Below, one piece after another: positions 5,148-23,637 of a DNA stretch of 64,000 bases. The notes under the pieces were generated by a model. That model was not told the DNA's origin. It saw nothing but the letters and a program-made list of their open reading frames with translations, and did no database searches. A program made the position numbers and the translations under genes. The stretch is from a virus: positions 1 through 64,000 of the IMG/VR virus record IMGVR_UViG_3300009509_000004; one strand, 5' to 3'. The stretch's first letter is position 1. Every line of letters starts with the position of its first letter.

Positions 5148-5627
5148 CTATCGCCTTCTGAACTTGTTTGTTCGCCTCAGCTGGTATTCACAGATGTTCT
5201 TCAACTCCTTGGGGAAGTCCTCACTGATGATCCAGCTCAAGTATCCTCTGTCAACCTCGGCAATATGCGACAGGTTGTTGCCGTCGTGCTTGCCAAAGTG
5301 CAACAATGCATCCCTTCCATCTGCGCTCACAACATATCTGCCGCCCTTGTGTCTGCCTTCCTTCTTGGCTTTGGCCTTGGCAGCCATGTTGTCAGCCCAG
5401 TTGCCTTTTGAATGCCTTGGGATCCAGCCGTGCCCCTCGCAAGCAACACAGATGTCTCCTGACCAATCGCCCGTTCCTTGACACCGCGCACACTGCTTTG
5501 CTGGCATGTTGAACGGGTTTTGCTTTGCCTCCCTGATCGGTTCAAGCGACCAACTGCCCTCCCTTTCCGGCAGCCCATCGACATCGTGGCCTTGAAGCCA
5601 CTTCCTCATTTCCTCAATGCTTGGCAC
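5148..5627 (-). CDS. Small protein with a DnaJ-like Zn finger and a C-terminal 'FGKH' (exonuclease X C-terminal-like) domain
   Basis: CxxCxGxG..CxxCxGxG motif; LHFGKHDG..LSHI..DRGYLSWI. Confidence 0.6.
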   Translation of the reverse strand: MPSIEEMRKWLQGHDVDGLPEREGSWSLEPIREAKQNPFNMPAKQCARCQGTGDWSGDICVACEGHGWIPRHSKGNWADNMAAKAKAKKEGRHKGGRYVVSADGRDALLHFGKHDGNNLSHIAEVDRGYLSWIISEDFPKELKNICEYQLRRTNKFRRR

Positions 5628-6225
5628 CGTTCAACTCTGGCACAACCAGATTGACAACACTCCTGACGCCATCCTCGATCTCGACATCACCCGTGTTGAT
5701 CTGGCGCTTGGTCAGCGTGACTGCCTGAAACATCTTCTTGTACCACGTGTCCAAAAGCGTGTACTGCTTCTTGTTTGGGCACCACCTCCCATAACACCTG
5801 CCCTGTGCTATGTGATATGGCGCTTTCAACCAGATGTACACGATTGGCCCGTTGCCTCGTTGGATGAGAGACAGCCAGAACTCCATCAATCTGCGTGCGA
5901 CGTACCGTTGCCCATACCATCCGTCATCATGGTTGTGTAACACACCATAGGCGACAGCAGACGGCACAGCACGATCCAAGATGGCGCTCACCTGGAATGT
6001 GGCCAAGAAGTCTGCTGCGTACAGATCGTCAACGTGCGTGTTGACCGGCACCTTCAACTCATCCCTGAGCATCTGGAACCGTTCTTGGCCCTTGTATCCC
6101 CAATGCAACTCCGTGTCGCCGTCCCTGAATGGCCTGACAATGGGCAATCCACCTAGCTGGTCTGATAATGCCTTTGCGTAGGTGGATTTGCCCACGCCAT
6201 TTGAGCCTTCAAGGATGATGATCAT
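5614..6225 (-). CDS. Deoxynucleoside monophosphate kinase (thymidylate kinase-like)
   Basis: IIILEGSNGVGKST P-loop; ILDR..PSAVAYG motif. Confidence 0.85.
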   Translation of the reverse strand: MIIILEGSNGVGKSTYAKALSDQLGGLPIVRPFRDGDTELHWGYKGQERFQMLRDELKVPVNTHVDDLYAADFLATFQVSAILDRAVPSAVAYGVLHNHDDGWYGQRYVARRLMEFWLSLIQRGNGPIVYIWLKAPYHIAQGRCYGRWCPNKKQYTLLDTWYKKMFQAVTLTKRQINTGDVEIEDGVRSVVNLVVPELNGAKH

Positions 6226-7526
6226 GTCGTTGCCAAAGTCCTGTGCGTCACCTCCAGGATCTGCAATGCAGCCTGGACCTCTGCCTCTGACACATTCAGA
6301 GGTGGCGTGAATCGGATCGGCCCATACTGCCGGTGCGTGGCCAAGGACAAGCCCAAGCGCCTCGCCTCGTGGATGAACCTGAACCCATCATAACCAAACT
6401 GCTCAAAATCTGGTGTGAACGCATTGAGCATCCCTGACCCGTCATGCTCTTTGACCCAGCTCATCTCAGCGAATGACGCCCTGATCATCGCCCCCTTCTT
6501 GCGCACCAACTCGATGTTCTTGTCCAACCACCTGTACATCTCAACTGCCATGTGACACACAAACGGTGAGCCTCCAAATGTGTTGAAGTGGACGCCTGGC
6601 GTGAACGCCTCTGCGACCTTGACCGATGCGAGCATCACGCTCATTGGGAATCCCATTGCGATGCCCTTGGCCAATGTCATGATGTCAGGCTTCACCTGGA
6701 TGTCTGGGTGTTGCCACGTTGCGAAGTATCCTGCGCGCCCCGACCCAGCCTGCACATCGTCATAGATGAGCAGCACGCCGTGTTCATCCCTGATGCGTTT
6801 CAACTCCTGCCAGAATGCCGGTTTGTATGTTTGGACAACGTTGTTGCCAAGCACTGGAGCAAGGATGATTGCTGCCACTTGATCCCAATTTGGTTCGCTT
6901 GGTTTGTGCTCGACTCCATCTGTGACAGTCTGTTTGAAATAGACCTTGCTGAAGTCTGCTTCCCAATCCAACACGCCAAACCCCTGCGACCCTGGGCCAA
7001 ATCCATGGCGGTGATATGGACTGACTCTGAAGTCTCCAGCCGCCATGCTGTTGGCCGTCCTGCCGTGGAAGTTGCCCTTGATGGTCAAGACCACGTGCCG
7101 CTTTGCCGTGTTCAGGATCTCCCCCTGCTCCTTGTCCCACCAATACTTGCGTGCCAGCTTGATTGCCGACTCGTTTGCCTCAGTGCCGCTGTTGGCAAAG
7201 AATGCGTGATCCATGCCTGTGCGGTCGCAAATGATCTCTGCAGCATCCCATCGCCGTTGGTTGGGATAGATGTCTGGCAACTGATGCGGGTGGCCACTCC
7301 CAAAGAACTTCATGACAGCCTGGATGACCTCTGGCGTGTTGTAGCCCAGCGAGCACACACCTTCATCTCCCCAATAGTCAAGAAGCGCTTTGTCATCGTG
7401 CTCTACATCAATGATGGTTGAGCCTTGACACGGCCCAATTGTCATGGGCATCCGCACAACATTGTTCATCAACCGCCTGTTGTACAACTCTGTGTTGACG
7501 GTTTTGTCTTCATTCGGGTTGGTCAT
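6222..7526 (-). CDS. Class III PLP-dependent aminotransferase (ArgD/GabT-like fold)
   Basis: FFANSGTEANESAIKLAR, FHGRT, YDDVQAGSGRAG, PDIMTLAKG (PLP lysine), HFNTFGGSP. Confidence 0.92.
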   Translation of the reverse strand: MTNPNEDKTVNTELYNRRLMNNVVRMPMTIGPCQGSTIIDVEHDDKALLDYWGDEGVCSLGYNTPEVIQAVMKFFGSGHPHQLPDIYPNQRRWDAAEIICDRTGMDHAFFANSGTEANESAIKLARKYWWDKEQGEILNTAKRHVVLTIKGNFHGRTANSMAAGDFRVSPYHRHGFGPGSQGFGVLDWEADFSKVYFKQTVTDGVEHKPSEPNWDQVAAIILAPVLGNNVVQTYKPAFWQELKRIRDEHGVLLIYDDVQAGSGRAGYFATWQHPDIQVKPDIMTLAKGIAMGFPMSVMLASVKVAEAFTPGVHFNTFGGSPFVCHMAVEMYRWLDKNIELVRKKGAMIRASFAEMSWVKEHDGSGMLNAFTPDFEQFGYDGFRFIHEARRLGLSLATHRQYGPIRFTPPLNVSEAEVQAALQILEVTHRTLATT

Positions 7527-8485
7527 CGCTTCAGCTCTCCTGTGTAGGGATCTCGACCCCAGAAGCGCCGATATTGCTCAGCGCGTTTGATCATTTCATC
7601 CTTGCGTGGCACATCCACGTGCGGCAACTGCAGCGGCAACATCCCACGTGCCGACTCGTCAACGTGATGGAAATTGAGGTGCAGCGGGCAAGGTGGAAGT
7701 GCGTCATCACCTGTCAAGCGCCGCCTGCACTCTTCCATGTAGATACACCCGCCAAACTTGTTTCCTTTCAGGCATGGCGGTGAGACCAGCTCTCTGAAGA
7801 TCGGGTGGATCTTCTCTGCTGCCTCGTTGATCATCCCCTCGATGATTGGCCCCCAAATGCCCAGCTGAAGAATCCAGCACCCACGCTTCCCAACAATATG
7901 GGCAAGGCTGCCGATGTTCAACCGCCAGCTGATTCTGTGTTGAGCGCCCAACGGTATGAGCTCACGCGCATCCTCCATTGGCACCCCTGCCGCCACCAGC
8001 TCGTTGTATGCCGACTCGATCACCTTCATCGTGTCGTGAAACAAGCTCTCTTTGCCCAGCTCGACAACCGTGGGTGGCAACCGATACTGCTTGTTGGTTG
8101 CATAATGGCCCATGTCCTGGATGCGCATCGACTGCGACCACCAACTGCTGTCTGCCAAATCAGGGATCTTGTCCACAACGATGTCCGACCCCAACCGCTC
8201 TGGGCTGGGTGTGACTCCGATGCGGTGACGCACAGCCTGCTCTCTCCAGCTGACTGAAACGTTCTCCATCATGTAGACCAGATCCACGTGTTCGCCAACT
8301 GGAATACGTTGAGCAATGACCGCCCTGAACAGCTCTTCAACCTCTTCATGCGGCACCTGCTCTTTGATTTCCTCTGGTGTGCGCAGCTTGTCCTCAGTCT
8401 TGGACGCCTCCCAGACGCTGTACACAGTCTCCAGCGGATCTTTCGTCCACGTCAACAATGTTACTTTTGGTGTTGGGTTGCTCAT
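7523..8485 (-). CDS. thyX: ThyX-like flavin-dependent thymidylate synthase homologue
   Basis: EH..(V)S..EQAVRHR...SQSMR, GVPMEDARELIP, NIGSLAHIVGKRGC. ATG at 8485 follows GGAGGA. Confidence 0.8.
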   Translation of the reverse strand: MSNPTPKVTLLTWTKDPLETVYSVWEASKTEDKLRTPEEIKEQVPHEEVEELFRAVIAQRIPVGEHVDLVYMMENVSVSWREQAVRHRIGVTPSPERLGSDIVVDKIPDLADSSWWSQSMRIQDMGHYATNKQYRLPPTVVELGKESLFHDTMKVIESAYNELVAAGVPMEDARELIPLGAQHRISWRLNIGSLAHIVGKRGCWILQLGIWGPIIEGMINEAAEKIHPIFRELVSPPCLKGNKFGGCIYMEECRRRLTGDDALPPCPLHLNFHHVDESARGMLPLQLPHVDVPRKDEMIKRAEQYRRFWGRDPYTGELKR

Positions 8486-8487
8486 CT

Positions 8488-9255
8488 TCAATCCTCCTTG
8501 AATGTCCTGATCACCTTGACAGGCACCTTGTCTTTCACCTCTTCAATTTCAAATCCGCCCCGCTCTGCGCCCTTCTTGAGCAGGAACATTGAAGACATGC
8601 GGTGCCAGATGACAACCGCAACAGTGCCAAAATCATACTTCTGCTTGTAGTGCAGGGCCACTGCCCTGAAATAGTCATACCAGTCATCAACGTCCATGCT
8701 GATTGATTCTGCGTATGACTCCCTGTTCTTCTTGAATCTTGCCAAACCAAACACCGCGCTGTCTGTCAGCGTCACCCACTCCCTGGACGCCCTGAAAATT
8801 GAGCTGACAGCATCTGAGTAGCGTGTTTCAGTCAGGTATCGGTTGAACGTGAGTTGATTGAAATCTGCATGCACCCAATCCCAAGACTTCTTTGCTTGCT
8901 TGGCGATGTATGCATATGAGTCAGCCTGCTTTGCCCTCACCATGGGCAGCGATCTCGTGATCGACTCGATGCAATCCTTGTTGACATCGAGCGCCAAGTG
9001 GCTCATCGGTTTGCACGCATCCTGAATCATGGAAGCGTGCCAACCTGACCCGCCAAACAACTCAATGACTGACTCGACCTTGCCCACCTTCTCAACAACC
9101 TTCTTGAATGCGGCAAGCTCTGCGTGAATCTCTTGACGCCTGATTGCATAATGGGCGTGCGGTGCATCCTTGCCGATCATCGCCCTTTCATCATCACTGG
9201 ATGAGTCACAGACGTACATCTGCTTGCTGCCAACTCTGACCTCTGTGATATTCAT
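8488..9255 (-). CDS. Class I SAM-dependent methyltransferase-fold protein
   Basis: VIELFGGSG (motif I), ALDVN (motif II), WDWVHADFN. ATG at 9255 forms an ATGA overlap with the upstream stop. Confidence 0.7.
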   Translation of the reverse strand: MNITEVRVGSKQMYVCDSSSDDERAMIGKDAPHAHYAIRRQEIHAELAAFKKVVEKVGKVESVIELFGGSGWHASMIQDACKPMSHLALDVNKDCIESITRSLPMVRAKQADSYAYIAKQAKKSWDWVHADFNQLTFNRYLTETRYSDAVSSIFRASREWVTLTDSAVFGLARFKKNRESYAESISMDVDDWYDYFRAVALHYKQKYDFGTVAVVIWHRMSSMFLLKKGAERGGFEIEEVKDKVPVKVIRTFKED

Positions 9256-10163
9256 GATGGCCTCCCAACCGCCTTGACGATTGATGGCCAATCTTCAACA
9301 CGTGTAATCAGCTTGTTGTCCTCGATGCCCTTGTTGTAATCCCAAGCCAATAGGAGCACAGGCACGCCAATGGCAGCGACCTCCTTTGCGTGCTTCTCTC
9401 GATCCTCGATGAAGTATGCTGGCCTGGCAGGGAAAATGAATTCATAGATGGCCTCAGCCTTGTCCTTGTTGAACAAGATCAAGTCATAGGTCATCCCGTG
9501 TTTCTGGAGCCATTCAACCGTGTCTCCATACACCCGCTTGTACTGCCAATATGGCCGTGCGCTGATGAGCACAATCTTCCATCCCGCCTCGCTGATTGCC
9601 TTCAGCCCTTCAGCCGCCCCCTCGATGGGTGGAAGATCCAAAAAGCCACCATCCCTGTAGAAGTCCTCTTTCAGCGACTCAAGCAGCTGCACCGTCCTGT
9701 CGTTCATCGGTGCGCCGCCACGCGCCTCATTGAGCTTGCTTTGCCACCCGCTGAGATCTGCGATGATGTTGTCCACATCGACGATGATCAGCTTTGTGTC
9801 TCGCTCAAGCTCAAGCCTCTCGCCCTTTGCCCTGTCGTCAACGACCTTGGACTTGCGCAAAAATGCCTCGTACAGCTCTGTGGCGGTCACGCCATACAGC
9901 TGTGCGATGCTGATGAGATATTTGAGCACGTCAGCCGCCCCGTCTGCCACGTTGACCTTCTCAACGGGTGGGCACCTCAAAATGTGTGCCTTGTATCTGG
10001 CCACGACCTGCGACAGCTCGCCTGCCTCTTCATACAAGCCCAAAGCAAGATCCTTTGCTGTCTGAGCCTTGGTGATTGCGTTCATCCCCTTGGGGTCCAT
10101 ATTGAACGCAACCTGTTGGTCGTGTTGTTTCTGCCACATCTCATTCCATTGGTCTGTCGTCAT
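9252..10163 (-). CDS. MazG-like NTP pyrophosphatase fused to a HAD 5'(3')-deoxyribonucleotidase
   Basis: N-terminal LYEEAGEL...DGAADVLKY; C-terminal IIVDVDNIIAD, LISAR, DK, FIEDR (HAD motifs I-IV). Confidence 0.8.
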   Translation of the reverse strand: MTTDQWNEMWQKQHDQQVAFNMDPKGMNAITKAQTAKDLALGLYEEAGELSQVVARYKAHILRCPPVEKVNVADGAADVLKYLISIAQLYGVTATELYEAFLRKSKVVDDRAKGERLELERDTKLIIVDVDNIIADLSGWQSKLNEARGGAPMNDRTVQLLESLKEDFYRDGGFLDLPPIEGAAEGLKAISEAGWKIVLISARPYWQYKRVYGDTVEWLQKHGMTYDLILFNKDKAEAIYEFIFPARPAYFIEDREKHAKEVAAIGVPVLLLAWDYNKGIEDNKLITRVEDWPSIVKAVGRPS

Positions 10164-11119
10164 ATGAACCACCTCTGAGCCAGGTCTGCTGCTTCTTCAA
10201 GTGTGACATCCGTTGTCGCTCTTGGATCCCATTTTGCAAACCTCCCAAGCAACTCAACGTTCTCTGGGAGTTTTGGTTGAGAATCCAAGGGCAACAGGTG
10301 CCCCTTCAATCCTTCACGTATGCTCTCTATGTACCAACCATCCCTGAAGATGAAATTGAGGTCAGAATACAGCGCCTGCTTGTTCAAATCTCCGTTCACC
10401 TCGACAGCGTATCCACCGCCCTCTGGCGATATTCTGTGGATGCAATCCTCTGGTGTGTATGGCGTGTAGACATAATCCCACTTGGCGTATTTGTCACGCT
10501 TTGGGTTGATCAAGGCCACATTCAATTTCATGGCCATCCCATCGGGCACATAGAACTTGACCACGCGCTGAATCACCCACAAAGGGACAGTCAGCACCAA
10601 GTAGTCATATGGCATCGTGGTGCCGCCCGCAAGGACAACATGGTCATCCTCGACACGCTCCAGCCCAGCCCTGATTATGTTTGCGTGCGCCGCCAGCTTG
10701 TTGATCATGTCTGGAAAATGGCACCTCAGCGCCCGTCTTGGCTTGATGCTCGCTGGGTCGTTCATTGCCTGGTTGCTGTGTTTGCCTGGTTCCATCCGCC
10801 TCGTTTTGCGGTAGTGATCGGCCTGGATGCGTGTTGCATCATCCTTGTTGAACTCCTGGAAGCACTTTGGGTATGGCAGCACCTCGCCTCTGAGCAAAAT
10901 GCCGCCTTGGACAGTGTAGTGGCTGTACATCACGCCGATCTTCCTGAACAACCATTCCATCATATCTGTGCTGTGGATGTACTTCAGTCCTCCAGCCAAG
11001 AATTCACCGCCGATGGTCCTGGGCTCCAGCACCTTTGTTTCAACGTTCTTGTGCTTGCTGAACACATATGCGCAGATCAACCCTGACACACCGCCGCCTG
11101 CGATGATCGCTTGTTTCAT
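10160..11119 (-). CDS. FAD-dependent oxidoreductase (UDP-galactopyranose mutase/amine oxidase-like fold)
   Basis: IIAGGGVSGLICA Rossmann motif, IGG, YDYLVLTVP, LLGRFAKW. ATG at 11119 follows GGAG. Confidence 0.85.
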   Translation of the reverse strand: MKQAIIAGGGVSGLICAYVFSKHKNVETKVLEPRTIGGEFLAGGLKYIHSTDMMEWLFRKIGVMYSHYTVQGGILLRGEVLPYPKCFQEFNKDDATRIQADHYRKTRRMEPGKHSNQAMNDPASIKPRRALRCHFPDMINKLAAHANIIRAGLERVEDDHVVLAGGTTMPYDYLVLTVPLWVIQRVVKFYVPDGMAMKLNVALINPKRDKYAKWDYVYTPYTPEDCIHRISPEGGGYAVEVNGDLNKQALYSDLNFIFRDGWYIESIREGLKGHLLPLDSQPKLPENVELLGRFAKWDPRATTDVTLEEAADLAQRWFI

Positions 11120-11136
11120 GCTATCTCCGATGTGGG

Positions 11137-11205
11137 AAAAAGTGGCGGCACCCCAGGAGAACGGACAGCCCGCTGACGCAGACAATCACGAATTGGGGTG
11201 CCGCC
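11137..11205 (-). terminator. Hairpin with 12-bp perfect stem, 38-nt loop and U-tract; candidate terminator/antisense RNA
   Basis: ggcggcacccca (11144-11155) / tggggtgccgcc (11194-11205), followed on the - strand by acttttt. Confidence 0.65.
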
Positions 11206-11242
11206 TGCCTCCGACAGCCTTGAACGACGGTTGGCAAGACCA

Positions 11243-12103
11243 TCAGCATGCCGGTGGCAAATCAATCTTACCTCGTTTCACTAGGTGCGCGATAGTCTGA
11301 GCAGCCAACGCAACCCCTTCTTTGTCCAGATTCATCATAACAGACCTGAACTTGCCGTCATCAATCGGTTGCGGCTTGATCTTGTCCATCGTCACCTTTC
11401 CAACTCCTATGTAGCTTGTGTGCTCCACAGGGATCTCGATGTCAAATGTCATTGAGCGCGTCTTGAACTTGATGACAGCCACAGGTGCATCCCTGCCTTT
11501 CGTCATCTTGCAGTACACACTCACATAGTTGCTGGTCCTCATCCTGTCAACGATGTAGAACCTGCCTGGCTTGACCGCCTCGCCTGGGGATGTGAACCTG
11601 TACACCTCCAGGTTCTCAACCATAACCGTCTTGAAGTGGTCAAACATCCTCTTCAGAATCTCTCTGCGCTCGATGGCCCGCTGTGTGATTGCCTTCCTGG
11701 CAAGCTCCTGGGCCTCCTTGCTGGGCCTGAGTGCCTTGCGGCCATCGTTCTCAGGTGCCTTCTTGGGCTTCTTGGGCCGTGTCGGATCTCTCGTGATCCT
11801 TCCTTCAACAACGCCATAGCGCTTGACTTGTTTCGCGCACAACCTCTCAAAGTGTCTCACACCCTTGATTGGGATACCCAACACGCCCTCTGGATGCGTT
11901 GGGTGCGGCTGCGCCTCGATAAAGTCATCAGCCTTCAGCTTGGTCTCTGCCAGGTATGCTTGGAATGCAACGCAATTGTCCCTGTACTTGCAGTGGTTGC
12001 GTTGAAACTCTGTATCAGCCTCTGGGTTGCCGTCACACGCCCCGTCGCCTGCCTCATATTCACCTGTGCAAAATGGCACATCGCGTTTTGGTTCTTCAGC
12101 CAT
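11243..12103 (-). CDS. Hypothetical protein with an N-terminal Cys cluster
   Basis: C..C..CxxxxxC N-terminus; overlaps the end of the sigma factor gene. Confidence 0.7.
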   Translation of the reverse strand: MAEEPKRDVPFCTGEYEAGDGACDGNPEADTEFQRNHCKYRDNCVAFQAYLAETKLKADDFIEAQPHPTHPEGVLGIPIKGVRHFERLCAKQVKRYGVVEGRITRDPTRPKKPKKAPENDGRKALRPSKEAQELARKAITQRAIERREILKRMFDHFKTVMVENLEVYRFTSPGEAVKPGRFYIVDRMRTSNYVSVYCKMTKGRDAPVAVIKFKTRSMTFDIEIPVEHTSYIGVGKVTMDKIKPQPIDDGKFRSVMMNLDKEGVALAAQTIAHLVKRGKIDLPPAC

Positions 12104-15265: not shown

Positions 15266-15295
15266 GTGTCCGTTCTCCGTTTTTGCCTGATTCTA

Positions 15296-15356
15296 AGTCT
15301 AATGCCTCCTGGTCTTGAAGTCAAGGAAAAAGTTGCCTTGGAGGCAACTTTTTTTG
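15296..15356 (-). promoter_or_regulatory. Terminator-like inverted repeat plus sigma70 promoter for cobT
   Basis: - strand TTGACT (15324-15319), 17-bp spacer, TAGACT (15301-15296); inverted repeat aaaaagttgcct-tgg-aggcaacttttt immediately upstream. Confidence 0.8.
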
Positions 15357-15359
15357 GCT

Positions 15360-16550
15360 TCACACCTCCCCACCAAAATACCGCTGGATGATGCCGTCAA
15401 CAAACTTGGCATCGTCAGCGCCCAACTTGTTGATGACTGCTACGTTTGCGCCCTTGCGCACGTCGTTGTAGCGCTTGGCTTTCCTGGCCCAAGACAGAAG
15501 CCTGCGAGTGCCAAATGTGCAATAGCACTCTTCACGGTTGAGTGCGTCTCTGACCTTGGCCGCGATCTCGACCATCTTGCGCGCCCAATCGATCTTGACG
15601 CCAGTCTTTTGAACCAGGATCTGCGTCTCTGTCTCCTTGTCTGGGTAGTCAAACTTGATGATGGTACCAAAACGGTCAAGCGTTGCCTCGTTGAGAACGT
15701 TGGCGCCAGCGTACAGCCCCGTGTCGTCACCGCGCCCGTTGGTGTTGTCCGTCCCAAAGATGCGGGTGCGCGGGTGCTTCGCAACGACCTCGCCGCCATT
15801 CTCGATGAGGACAAGATCGTCACCCTCAAGACAACCTTGGAGGCGCATCAGAACGCCTGCCGGTGCCATGGTGATCTCGTCAAGGATGATGAAATATCCA
15901 TCCCGCCATGCGCGGGTGAACGCGCCATCCTTCCAGCGTGTGACCTGCTTGCCGGTTTCCTCGTCAACAACGATCTCCATCTGGCCGATGAAGTCTTCAA
16001 TGCTGATCTTCTGGCTGAACTGGAACCGAATACAAGGTGTGTTGACGATTGCTGCGAGCTGTTTGACGATGGTGGTCTTGCCGCCGCCTGTGGGCCCGAA
16101 AATGAAGATGTTGTCGTTGTCCTCGATGCCGACTGCGATGTGCTCCATGTGCTCCATTTCGCGCTTGCCTGGGAGCCACTTGGCGTCGTGCTTCGGCACC
16201 TCTGCCTTCTGAAGCGCCGTGAGGTCTGCGTCCTTGACGAGTTTGAGCCTGGCTACGCCAACCTTGAAATCCTCTGCCGACTCGGTGACGACCTCTGCCG
16301 CCTTGGGCTCTGGCCCTTTCGATGGCTCGATTGGCTTGGCCTTGACCGCCCGCTTCTGCCCTTTGCTCGCCATCTTGCGCGCCGCCTCGCTGATTGTTGG
16401 TTCGCCAGGATACTTGGCCTGATAATCTGCGAGAGACATCGAGTGCTCGACCTTGAGGTGGACTTCCAAACGATGGAACCAACACTCACAGATCCTGCAC
16501 TGGATTTTCTCTCTGCCCTTCTTGTCGAGTTTGGTGTGCTTGCTTCCCAT
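15360..16550 (-). CDS. cobS: CobS/MoxR-like AAA+ ATPase with an N-terminal Ros/MucR-like zinc finger
   Basis: GPTGGGKT, IILDE, TDNTNGRGD, NEATLDRF; N-terminal CRICECWFHRLEVHLKVEHSMSLADYQAKYP. Confidence 0.88.
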   Translation of the reverse strand: MGSKHTKLDKKGREKIQCRICECWFHRLEVHLKVEHSMSLADYQAKYPGEPTISEAARKMASKGQKRAVKAKPIEPSKGPEPKAAEVVTESAEDFKVGVARLKLVKDADLTALQKAEVPKHDAKWLPGKREMEHMEHIAVGIEDNDNIFIFGPTGGGKTTIVKQLAAIVNTPCIRFQFSQKISIEDFIGQMEIVVDEETGKQVTRWKDGAFTRAWRDGYFIILDEITMAPAGVLMRLQGCLEGDDLVLIENGGEVVAKHPRTRIFGTDNTNGRGDDTGLYAGANVLNEATLDRFGTIIKFDYPDKETETQILVQKTGVKIDWARKMVEIAAKVRDALNREECYCTFGTRRLLSWARKAKRYNDVRKGANVAVINKLGADDAKFVDGIIQRYFGGEV

Positions 16551-16600
16551 GTCCGTTCTCCTTTTTGAGTTGGATTTGCCCTTTCCAACTTTCAACTTAA

Positions 16601-16661
16601 ATTGTAACCGATCTGTTTCCAGAAGTCAAGAAAAAAATTGCCTTGGAGGCAACTTTTTTTG
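16601..16661 (-). promoter_or_regulatory. Terminator-like inverted repeat plus sigma70 promoter for cobS
   Basis: - strand TTGACT (16629-16624), 17-bp spacer, TACAAT (16606-16601); inverted repeat at 16631-16660; 16622-16661 is 38/40 identical to 15317-15356. Confidence 0.85.
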
Positions 16662-16674
16662 TTTCCTATTGAAT

Positions 16675-17673
16675 TCATTGATAGATTTTCTCCAACTTTT
16701 TTCTGCTCGCACCAACGATTGCACTCAATCTGCCACGCCTGTCACCAGTATATTTCACCGCGTTGTCGTATGCCTCCCATGCCTGCTTGCGCGTTGATGC
16801 CCCTGGGTCTGTGCCCATCGGCAACCGCGCAATCGACACGTGGTCAAAGCGACACAACAACTGCTCTGCGACCTTGTATGGCGCTTCTGCCTCTTCAGGG
16901 TCAAGCATGACGGTGATGGCTGCGTCGCTGGGCTTCATGATGAGCATCGCCAGTTGTTCTGGATGCAGCACCTTGCCCATGAGTGCGAGTGCGGGAATGC
17001 CGTGCTGCCACAACTTGATTGCGTCCAATGGCCCCTCGACAATGGCCACATCGCCCTCGATTTTGTGATGCTTCCACCCAAGCAAAAGTCTGGCGTGGTC
17101 GGCACCTTTTGGATTCAGGTATTTGGGCTGCTGTTGGCCTGTCGTGTCGCGTGCCGTGAACGATCTTCCATTGGGGCATTCCACTGGGATGACTATGCGC
17201 CCGCCATATCGCCCTGATCGACACCAACCGACTCCCCATTCACGCGCTGTGGCTTTCTTGATGCGCCTTTCCTTCAGGTACACAGGAAAACTCCAATGGC
17301 CATCCTTGTACACAGGGATGTATTCTGCCGGCAACGGGAAGTCAACCGCATCGTCTGGTGCGTCGCCCTCCCTGAGCGCCAGCACCTTCTCAACCAACGT
17401 CTGCGGTGTCTCCTTGCGTCTGAACTCGACCTCGTTGCGCATGATGTAGCGCTGCGCCTCGCCCCTGCTGATCCCCTCCACTTGGGCAATCAGCCCGATC
17501 ATGAAGCGCCCTGCTTCTTCACACTTGAAACAGATGTAGTGGCCCTTTTCGCCATCCACATAAAAGTGGCCATCTTTGGAACACCAAGGACACACCGCGA
17601 TGATCTGGCCTGTGCTGCCCAAGCGCACTCTGTCCAGATTGTCTCGGCACCAGCCCTCGATGTCAAATTTCAT
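16675..17673 (-). CDS. DNA primase (Zn finger + TOPRIM)
   Basis: CPWC...CFKC, RIVIP, PKYLNP, AIVEGPLDAI, MLDPE. Confidence 0.88.
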   Translation of the reverse strand: MKFDIEGWCRDNLDRVRLGSTGQIIAVCPWCSKDGHFYVDGEKGHYICFKCEEAGRFMIGLIAQVEGISRGEAQRYIMRNEVEFRRKETPQTLVEKVLALREGDAPDDAVDFPLPAEYIPVYKDGHWSFPVYLKERRIKKATAREWGVGWCRSGRYGGRIVIPVECPNGRSFTARDTTGQQQPKYLNPKGADHARLLLGWKHHKIEGDVAIVEGPLDAIKLWQHGIPALALMGKVLHPEQLAMLIMKPSDAAITVMLDPEEAEAPYKVAEQLLCRFDHVSIARLPMGTDPGASTRKQAWEAYDNAVKYTGDRRGRLSAIVGASRKKLEKIYQ

Positions 17674-23461: not shown

Positions 23462-23473
23462 TATAACCTCCGC

Positions 23474-23553
23474 AAAAAAAAGCCCCGCACCTCCATCGAT
23501 GGCTGTGCAGGCCAAACAGGACGTTTGACCCCATCGGTGGAGGTGCGTCAGGC
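23474..23553 (-). promoter_or_regulatory. Structured leader (long hairpin + U-tract) before the initiator RBS
   Basis: gcacctccatcgatgg (23487-23502) / ccatcggtggaggtgc (23531-23546); inner stem ggccaaac/gtttgacc; U-tract on the - strand. Confidence 0.6.
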
Positions 23554-23598
23554 AACTTCTCTTTGCTGATTGACGGTGCACAGCAACCAGCGATCATC

Positions 23599-23627
23599 GT
23601 TCTAACTCGACCCAGACTTCAGGTCAA
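23599..23627 (-). promoter_or_regulatory. Putative sigma70 promoter for the replication block
   Basis: - strand TTGACC, 17-bp spacer, TAGAAC. Confidence 0.5.
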
Positions 23628-23637
23628 GAAATTTCTC

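Follow-up and report, generated by a model that had tools for sequence, protein, structure and literature searches.

The window analysed here, i.e., positions 1 to 64,000 of the IMG/VR record IMGVR_UViG_3300009509_000004, covers the first 64 kb of a 106,758 bp phage genome with direct terminal repeats (DTRs). All 132 genes that our simple in-house caller, used here as well as for the related phages, reports for the whole genome are located on the minus strand. Along this strand the window encodes a primase, cobS, cobT, a sigma factor, ORF286, an FAD/NAD-binding protein (FAD in the following), MazG-NT5C, a methyltransferase-like protein and ThyX. ORF286 and FAD are separated by a gap of 123 nt, and the subject of this study is the hairpin within that gap. 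Inside the hairpin lies the exact complement of a leader, i.e., a Shine-Dalgarno sequence (SD) plus spacer, that cobS and cobT share with other genes of the phage, and among related phages leader and hairpin change together. Judged from these sequences, the two very probably constitute a genuine RNA-RNA switch, for which no counterpart has yet been described in lytic phages. The positions of all features are given in Table 1.

Table 1. Features of the hairpin locus and its surroundings (window coordinates)
Feature	Position	Strand	Remarks
Anti-leader hairpin, 62 nt	11144..11205	minus	12-bp basal stem, internal loop, 11-bp upper stem, GUCA tetraloop
U-tract UUUUU	11137..11141	minus	2 nt past the stem; terminator-like tail
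Anti-leader UGUCCGUUCUCC	11156..11167	minus	exact complement of GGAGAACGGACA
Second loop segment UGAUUGUCUGCGU	11176..11188	minus	partner 15253-15241, cobT codons 5-9; half of the upper stem
Shared leader (SD + spacer) GGAGAACGGACA	15267..15278	minus	cobT, first gene of the operon ending at the hairpin
Shared leader GGAGAACGGACA	16550..16561	minus	cobS; final A is the A of ATG
Primase	16675-17673	minus	
cobS-like AAA+ (MoxR/CbbQ type)	15360..16550	minus	Pfam AAA_5 4e-22, CbbQ_C 8e-10
cobT-like VWA protein, 676 aa	13235..15265	minus	Pfam CobT_C 9e-21
Phage sigma factor, 380 aa	12096..13238	minus	Pfam Sigma70_r2 1.9e-5, above cut-off; syntenic in 16/16 related loci
ORF286	11243..12103	minus	3' untranslated region (3'UTR) holds the hairpin; four invariant N-terminal Cys
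FAD/NAD-binding protein	10160..11119	minus	first gene downstream of the hairpin; own GGAG ribosome-binding site (RBS) at 11128-11125

Hairpin structure and complementarity to the shared leader

On the minus strand, GGCGGCACCCCA (11205-11194) pairs with UGGGGUGCCGCC (11155-11144), which yields a basal stem of 12 bp, 10 of them G-C pairs. A first-pass annotation of the window, made without database searches, had described a 38-nt loop on top of this stem. Both the stem and the 38 nt between its arms (11193-11156) are present, but the latter are not free: in the minimum free energy structure as well as in the ensemble they fold into the upper stem, which includes three G.U pairs. What remains is an asymmetric internal loop with 3 nt on its 5' side and 6 nt on its 3' side. 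The predicted energy of the hairpin is -40 kcal/mol (z -6.7) on the minus strand versus -29.9 kcal/mol for the plus-strand version. Since the plus-strand fold is weaker by about 10 kcal/mol, the structure under selection is that of the gene-strand RNA.

Directly 3' of the stem follows ACUUUUUCCC. With a G+C-rich stem and the subsequent A-C-UUUUU, the element shows the stem and U-tract of an intrinsic (Rho-independent) terminator; it lacks the compact hairpin with a loop of 3-8 nt (38 nt lie between the arms), and a scan for consensus terminators made no call. By shape, 12 + 11 bp with a 3/6 internal loop also fit an RNase III site of the T7 R1.1 type; the inner structures of the relatives' hairpins are quite different. 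Rfam searches returned only chance snoRNA/lncRNA matches far below threshold for 10900-11500 (E up to 10) and nothing at gathering score in 88 kb, with no match to the C4 antisense RNA family.

The first-pass annotation had also placed the exact complement of the cobT and cobS RBSs in the loop, and direct reading confirms this with exact coordinates. UGUCCGUUCUCC is the sole site in the genome that is complementary to the 12-mer GGAGAACGGACA. Folding of the region, which had been suggested as a check, leaves the seed exposed: UUCUCC (11161-11156), which makes up the 3' side of the internal loop, is unpaired with a probability of about 1.0, while the remaining six bases of UGUCCGUUCUCC are part of the upper stem. 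Opening the seed is predicted to cost 0.03 kcal/mol and opening all 12 nt 5.1 kcal/mol. That is, exposed loop bases are complementary to the SD/start region of the targets, as in trans-acting anti-RBS antisense RNAs. The originally quoted chance of 1e-6 for such a match was derived post hoc; the 12-mer is expected 0.0005-0.002 times on the transcribed strand.

For the second loop segment, a pairing with the first codons of cobT had been put forward. The pairing is there (11 Watson-Crick pairs, one G.U and one mismatch), yet a match of this quality does not clearly exceed chance. Taken as a target site of its own, UGAUUGUCUGCGU was rejected: its partner ranks 86 of 132 start regions and 70% of the genome windows pair equally well. 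When considered as a collinear extension anchored to the 12-mer, it is marginal (P 0.005-0.024) and equalled by one of the 12 other leader genes. Two further candidates were discarded. The plus-strand copy does not serve as the RBS of a plus-strand gene, given that no start codon follows 11156 or 65244 and that all genes are on the minus strand, and between the loop and the RBS of FAD further downstream no more than 5 bp can form.

The shared leader and further anti-leaders in the genome

The cobS and cobT RBSs named by the first-pass annotation as targets are both exact, yet they undercount the leader. A search of the rest of the genome, as had been suggested, finds the core GGAGAACGG in 12 copies on the gene strand, all of them 1-4 nt ahead of a start codon, plus the near copy GGAGAACGC, such that 13 leader genes are present in all (cobS, cobT and eleven genes at 84.9-96 kb). 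The remaining about 120 genes have ordinary SDs of the AGGAGG type.

Most leader genes are held by a repeated cassette, which is composed of an A7 tract, a bidirectional terminator, TTGACT-17-TATAAT, GGCAAA and the leader. About 10 copies are found at genome positions 88400-96030 in addition to the cobS and cobT copies (window 16551-16674 and 15266-15359). In the latter two, a terminator and a promoter precede the leader (TTGACT-17-TACAAT for cobS, TTGACT-17-TAGACT for cobT). One copy, at genome position 94133, is inverted and faces ORF-free DNA. Furthermore, the leader occurs without a promoter ahead of internal genes, e.g., those with starts at 92341 and 91297 of the genome. Within 130 nt, 7/12 leader genes have a strict sigma70-like promoter compared to 4/120 others, and because of this enrichment the leader genes are probably early genes.

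The first-pass annotation described a single element. The hairpin is real, but two further anti-leaders are present in other 3'UTRs of the genome. On the transcribed strand, the core complement CCGUUCUCC has three copies, all of them in 3'UTRs next to U-tract terminators. Copy 1 is in the hairpin loop, as part of UGUCCGUUCUCC. Copy 2 (genome 94723-94715, L126 10715-10723) is part of CAUCCGUUCUCCAUUUGCCC (94707-94726, L126:10707-10726, minus strand), 9 nt past the stop of the gene at 94736-95344 and 1 nt ahead of an 11-bp U-tract terminator hairpin. With GGAGAACGGAUG of the gene starting at 93786 the complementarity of CAUCCGUUCUCCAUUUGCCC is exact, and one bulge interrupts that with the cassette leader GGGCAAAGGAGAACGG; in a read-through RNA, CAUCCGUUCUCCAUUUGCCC is predicted by RNAfold to pair with the following leader, 150 nt further downstream. 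Copy 3 (genome 65252-65244, L127 1244-1252, minus strand) lies 22 nt ahead of a U-tract terminator and 6 nt past the stop of an 82-aa gene behind a MuF-like head gene, i.e., on a transcript of the late region.

Depending on the Markov order (0-2), CCGUUCUCC is expected 0.03-0.18 times on the whole strand and 0.006-0.015 times in the 9.5 kb of non-coding sequence, which corresponds to P ~1e-7 for finding three copies there. In the predicted folds, the seed of each copy is largely single-stranded, and the net pairing energies with the leaders (opening costs included) range from -8 to -27 kcal/mol. What the copies share is the SD-plus-spacer core alone, which is intact (27/27 nt); their flanks differ.

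Leader and hairpin in related phages

Related phages were reached via FAD, for which 186 homologues were found, many of them on contigs of 95-115 kb; from an alignment of 33 we arrived at 16 IMG/VR loci. The records compared comprise eight whole records and five incomplete contigs, while the closest ORF286/FAD homologues (80-88% identity; JGI and Logan contigs) are outside the comparison. No relatives were reached with ORF286 (single sequence or alignment) in viral, metagenome and genome contigs or with cobT in viral contigs, and DNA patterns of leader and cassette gave only single chance matches without related proteins in viral and metagenome contigs. The FAD proteins of the 16 loci are 44-58% identical to ours at a G+C content of 39-63%. 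The order primase-cobS-cobT-sigma-ORF286-FAD-MazG-ThyX is kept in these loci, except for L136 (without cobS and cobT).

A long G+C-rich hairpin between ORF286 and FAD is found in 12 distinct phages including ours (G000), followed by a U-tract in 8 of them. All but one of these hairpins (11/12) carry the complement of the leader of the same phage; these cases are not fully independent as the phages are related, but represent at least nine distinct leader sequences. In L139 the complement is located outside the hairpin, immediately on its 5' side, in a 12-nt segment overlapping the ORF286 stop. For the twelfth phage, L132, of which a 25-kb fragment is available, no leader target was found for the loop. 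Among the remaining records, L133 has a 464-nt gap, and in the two complete relatives without hairpin, G013 and G016, ORF286 and FAD overlap. Neither a shared leader of the spacer type nor an anti-leader was found in G013 and G016, and the same holds for G017 (464-nt gap).

The leaders and their gene numbers vary among the phages: GGAGAACGGACA in G000 (13 genes), GGA(A/G)GUCAGCCAUG in G004 (6), GGAGAACCGGCC in G009 (13-17), GGAGAUCGA in G010 (at least 7), CCUGGAGAUCAG in G011 (7), GGAGAUCAGCCA in G012 (5) and GGAGUCCAAA in G006 (3-4 in a fragment). Other examples are GGAAGUCAGCCAUG and CAGGAGAUCAAA. The leader-hairpin duplexes comprise 10-17 bp with energies of -16 to -28 kcal/mol and always cover SD and spacer, up to or into the start codon.

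We assessed the specificity of this complementarity in three ways. First, pairing each hairpin with the cobS/cobT start region of its own phage beats random reassignment with P ~1-2e-5 for both run length and energy, although cobS and cobT of two of the phages have no leader. Second, a genome scan for leader complements (at most one mismatch or G.U) identified the hairpin as the only non-coding match in seven genomes and as one of two in G004. Third, in a column table anchored at the SD, columns 1-3 are invariant while columns 4, 5, 6, 8, 9, 10, 12 and 13 each show 2-3 Watson-Crick pair types; its about 114 cells contain only one mismatch, one bulge and four G.U pairs. Compensatory change in relatives, a further mark of trans-acting anti-RBS antisense RNAs, is thus seen in 8 columns (P ~1e-5).

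As a side observation on G004, its second non-coding near-complement of the leader is AUGGCUGUCUCC, and an exact copy of the loop, AUGGCUGACUUC, is found within the FAD coding region (oriented positions 76118 and 32966).

The relation also has predictive value for L136. From its loop GGCCGGUUUCC the leader GGAAACCGGCC was predicted, and AAAAAAAAGGAGACCGGCC-AUG (GGAGACCGGCC-AUG) was found ahead of the sigma gene, after TATAAT, with 12 pairs, one G.U.

Regulon membership is partly conserved among the phages; the leader sequence is not. In several phages the local leader is found ahead of the orthologues of cobS, cobT, a 337-aa protein (88926-89939) and a 277-aa protein (90464-91297). ThyX has it in L139, L140 and L135 (G011, G012 and G010, respectively) but not in G000. 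In G010 and G012, cobS and cobT are without leader while 5-14 other genes carry it. In G000, G004, G007, G009, G011 and L136, the first gene of the operon ending at the hairpin is a leader gene (5'UTR-3'UTR layout); in G010 and G012 it is not.

Few kinds of purely sequence-based evidence for an RNA-RNA contact are as strong as covariation between two separate molecules. With 10 related phages of different leaders, the covariation strongly supports the regulatory contact between loop and RBS that the first-pass annotation had proposed. Because of the compensatory changes, the permutation result and the absence of the leader in relatives without hairpin, we are highly confident that the loop-leader pairing is under selection.

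Genes around the hairpin

The genes directly 3' of the hairpin have no visible promoter, and the GGAG and ATG (11119) of FAD follow about 20 nt past ACUUUUUCCC. On the other side, ORF286 adjoins the sigma gene in 16/16 related loci at identities of 25-39%; it has no Pfam match and its AF2 model is poor (pLDDT 52). Downstream, the block FAD-MazG/NT5C-(methyltransferase)-ThyX (window 5614-11119) is kept in a family of 80-116-kb phages with G+C contents of 39-63%. No cultured phage close to any member of this family was found in INPHARED, and blastn and tblastn searches of cultured phages with the region, ORF286, sigma and FAD gave no match. Matches of capsid and cobT in cultured phages are at most 37% identical. 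The best identity of the capsid protein, 31%, is to Streptomyces phage proteins, i.e., the phage is not of the T4 type. Lysogeny genes were not found in the annotated parts of the phage, a motif search for a promoter common to middle or late operons gave no clear result, and a protein atlas search returned no match.

Three further observations concern promoter-like sites and hairpins. A weak sigma70-like site with extended -10 (ATGACG-16-TG-TATGAT) is located within the 3' end of ORF286 (window 11334-11361, minus strand); if it is active, transcription from it would yield an RNA of about 185 nt with the hairpin at its 3' end. At genome position 87840-87893 (L126:3840-3893, minus strand), another 3'UTR hairpin has a 3' arm and tail, CGGCACCCCCAAUUC, that match the 5' arm and the beginning of the loop of the anti-leader hairpin almost completely (14-nt similarity at 87862), followed by the canonical anti-SD CCACCUCC and a long C/A-rich tract. 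Finally, window 23462-23637 (minus strand) shows the same layout as the anti-leader hairpin, namely a TTGACC promoter-like site, a 16-bp stem with a 28-nt structured loop, U8, GGAGG and the ATG of a 552-aa gene; the 5' arm of its stem, CACCUCCA, resembles the 16S anti-SD.

Discussion

On balance, we favour a reading in which the 3' end that bears the hairpin represses the leader genes in trans and is coupled to the sigma operon. Here, the hairpin would form the 3' end of the cobT-sigma-ORF286 transcript or of a small RNA processed from it. Its exposed UUCUCC would seed a pairing with the SD of mRNAs that carry the leader GGAGAACGG(ACA)UG, and the duplex would extend to 12 bp, up to the start codon, such that the 30S subunit is kept off. 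We take this 30S block as the default effect because the duplex covers SD and start codon. With the RNA co-produced with the phage sigma factor, the 3' end would accumulate and the 13 leader genes, the operon's own cobT among them, would be translated less. The linkage to the sigma gene suggests that the shut-off of the leader genes is coupled to the transcriptional class switch. An action in trans would be needed in G010 and G012, because their cobS and cobT are without leader while other genes carry it, and for copy 3 of G000, because that copy sits on a late-region transcript. Anti-SD-like sequences distant from the RBS are known to repress in vivo, there in cis (PMC12697547).

Several points weigh against this reading. 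Five of the 12 anti-leader bases (GUCCG) are paired in the upper stem, and relatives with loops of 10-11 nt cannot form the full-length duplex while the stem is closed. A gene for Hfq or another chaperone was not found, i.e., an Hfq/Sm-like protein in the phage has no Pfam support. Promoter support for the early class of the leader genes is confined to G000 and, weakly, G009. Furthermore, leader genes and anti-leader share the same kind of promoter in this phage, and the timing logic is for this reason a guess. The conservation of the leader within the genome could be owed largely to cassette recombination of the PeSL kind and not to RNA. Finally, the phage is uncultured and all evidence is computational.

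The main rival is an RNA-controlled attenuator, which is compatible with repression, i.e., the two are not mutually exclusive. Repression and read-through control had both been put forward by the first-pass annotation, and they are still the two foremost readings. In this case, leader RNA, provided in trans by early mRNAs or by the transcript's own 5' end, would bind the nascent loop, hinder the closure of the stem and thus allow read-through into the operon of FAD, nucleotide metabolism and replication. The position of the element is in line with this: the hairpin is always directly ahead of FAD, a promoter does not fit between them, the RBS of FAD follows 10-35 nt later, 8/12 hairpins have a U-tract, and in the two relatives without hairpin the overlapping ORF286 and FAD are co-transcribed and translationally coupled. 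Several relatives have an entire loop of 10-11 nt (in L134 plus one stem base) that is complementary to the leader, such that full pairing excludes a closed stem; in G000 the anti-leader abuts the 3' arm, and ThyX of the downstream operon itself carries the leader in three relatives. On the other hand, the two extra anti-leaders of G000 are located in single-stranded 3'UTR before ordinary terminators and not inside them, the one of L139 is outside its hairpin, and 4/12 hairpins lack the U-tract. Stems of 12-20 G+C-rich bp also close fast, such that an RNA acting in trans must win a kinetic race. We regard attenuation as rather unlikely to be the function of the hairpin.

Less probable still is a strictly intramolecular pairing of 5'UTR and 3'UTR as in icaR, i.e., a hairpin that acts only on the mRNA it belongs to, at the leader of the first cistron (sigma in L136, cobT in our phage), and sets the translation and decay of this mRNA. 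It has a precedent in icaR (PMC3868564) and in the documented long-range effects of anti-SD sequences (PMC12697547). The operon of the hairpin does start with a leader gene in G000, G004, G007, G009 and G011, and in L136 with sigma itself; the extended complementarity to the cobT codons would fit as well but is the marginal one reported above. This layout is broken in G010 and G012, which have leaders elsewhere (5-14 genes) and not at the cobS/cobT starts, and copy 3 of G000 has no leader upstream on its late-region transcript. The recurrence of the same spacer in 5-17 genes per genome is left unexplained.

It is very improbable that the elements are a by-product at the DNA level, i.e., inverted cassette fragments from PeSL-like recombination without RNA function, with the hairpin being a terminator or an RNase III-type site. 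T7 RNase III sites have a two-stem shape with an asymmetric internal loop, which the hairpin resembles. The leader is moreover part of a cassette repeated about 10 times, of which one copy (genome 94133) is inverted, and PeSL cassettes recombine between -10 and SD (PMC2839356). However, such fragments should not share just the intact SD-plus-spacer core with different flanks, as the three copies do, nor should the complement recur in the same syntenic hairpin of 11 phages with differing leaders. Apart from the bulge, 4/5 departures from complementarity are G.U, which is a match only in gene-strand RNA. Also, 10-14 bp are too short for gene conversion to keep them in step. A chance match in an ordinary terminator loop has practically no standing left: inspecting many hairpins will yield some 12-mer coincidences, but the expectation (0.0005-0.002 per genome), the three non-coding cores (~1e-7), the cross-phage permutation (P ~1e-5) and the column table already refute it.

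Coming back to repression in trans, we tentatively extend it to a two-part RNA 'address system' of ~100-kb DTR phages, in which a phage-specific leader is matched by a single anti-leader hairpin linked to the sigma operon. Its specificity code may resemble the heteroimmunity of P1/P7: each phage would schedule the shut-off of its own early genes, and could silence the early genes of superinfecting phages of its own type, with those of other types unaffected. While the address differs between relatives, the addressed set (host-takeover, cobS/cobT and nucleotide-metabolism genes) is partly the same.

If true, apparently lytic phages would provide the first case of a covarying RNA that shuts off early genes across an entire regulon. 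Across the phage family, leader and complement have been rewritten together many times. The system raises the evolutionary question of how a leader of many genes changes in concert with its regulator, and it offers a set of orthogonal RNA repressor/RBS pairs. Matched and mismatched loop-leader pairs from different phages are natural compensatory mutants, with which the system could be tested directly and without the host.

Comparison with known systems

The c4 RNA of the P1/P7 immunity region is made from the transcript of its own target, and its specificity differs between phages via matched changes of RNA and target. It is likewise a phage-encoded structured RNA with loops complementary to a ribosome-binding region, whereby translation is blocked; for P1, the pairing of the c4 loops with the RBS is described in PMC12197685. 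In contrast to the hairpin, c4 controls one operon (icd-ant) of a temperate phage from a position upstream of its target, while here a 3'-end hairpin faces the leader of 5-17 scattered genes. There is no sequence or Rfam similarity between the two.

In the icaR mRNA of Staphylococcus aureus, a pyrimidine-rich 3'UTR motif pairs with the mRNA's own SD, blocks initiation and creates an RNase III substrate (PMC3868564). This concerns a single bacterial gene and 7 nt (UCCCCUG), which pair within one mRNA molecule or between two molecules of this mRNA. The complement found here spans 10-14 nt including the phage-specific spacer, is presented in a terminator-like hairpin loop and relates to many genes.

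Bacterial sRNAs that bind SDs and are either derived from 3'UTRs or equipped with C-rich loops (e.g., CpxQ, DapZ and RsaE/RoxS) have their seed beside or inside the Rho-independent terminator at an mRNA 3' end, and one such RNA binds the RBSs of several mRNAs. They are host regulators with targets of unrelated leaders. In the phages, in contrast, all targets have one engineered-looking leader; the RNA is matched to its regulon, and this pair is replaced from one phage to the next.

Repeated combinations of terminator, sigma70 promoter and SD ahead of small early genes are known as PeSL (promoter-early stem-loop) from T4-type phages (PMC2839356, PMC4122927). The cassette found here is of the same make-up (repeated stem-loop terminator, promoter and SD). 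However, PeSL are described as recombination linkers for which no complementary RNA is known, whereas the leader has a conserved antisense partner. In addition, the SD-plus-spacer also occurs without promoter in our phage, which does not belong to the T4 type.

Early shut-off in large lytic phages is mainly achieved by proteins (T4 RegB and RegA), transcription factors and ADP-ribosylation, while to our knowledge the known antisense RNAs of phages act on single genes of temperate phages. RegB and RegA resemble the proposed system in that many early mRNAs are inactivated post-transcriptionally via an SD motif, and the first 7 nt of GGAGAACGGACA even match the start, GGAGRAY, of the T4 RegB consensus GG*AGRAYARAA (PMC3014915). 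The effectors differ, i.e., they are proteins in T4 while the element here is an RNA, in a phage where the Pfam search found no RegB homologue. In a full-text literature search, no comparable case was found in which an RNA shuts off early genes of a phage at their SD. New with respect to all these systems is that one RNA faces a multi-gene leader regulon, that it is a 3'-end hairpin tied to a sigma operon, and that leader and anti-leader co-evolve regulon-wide.

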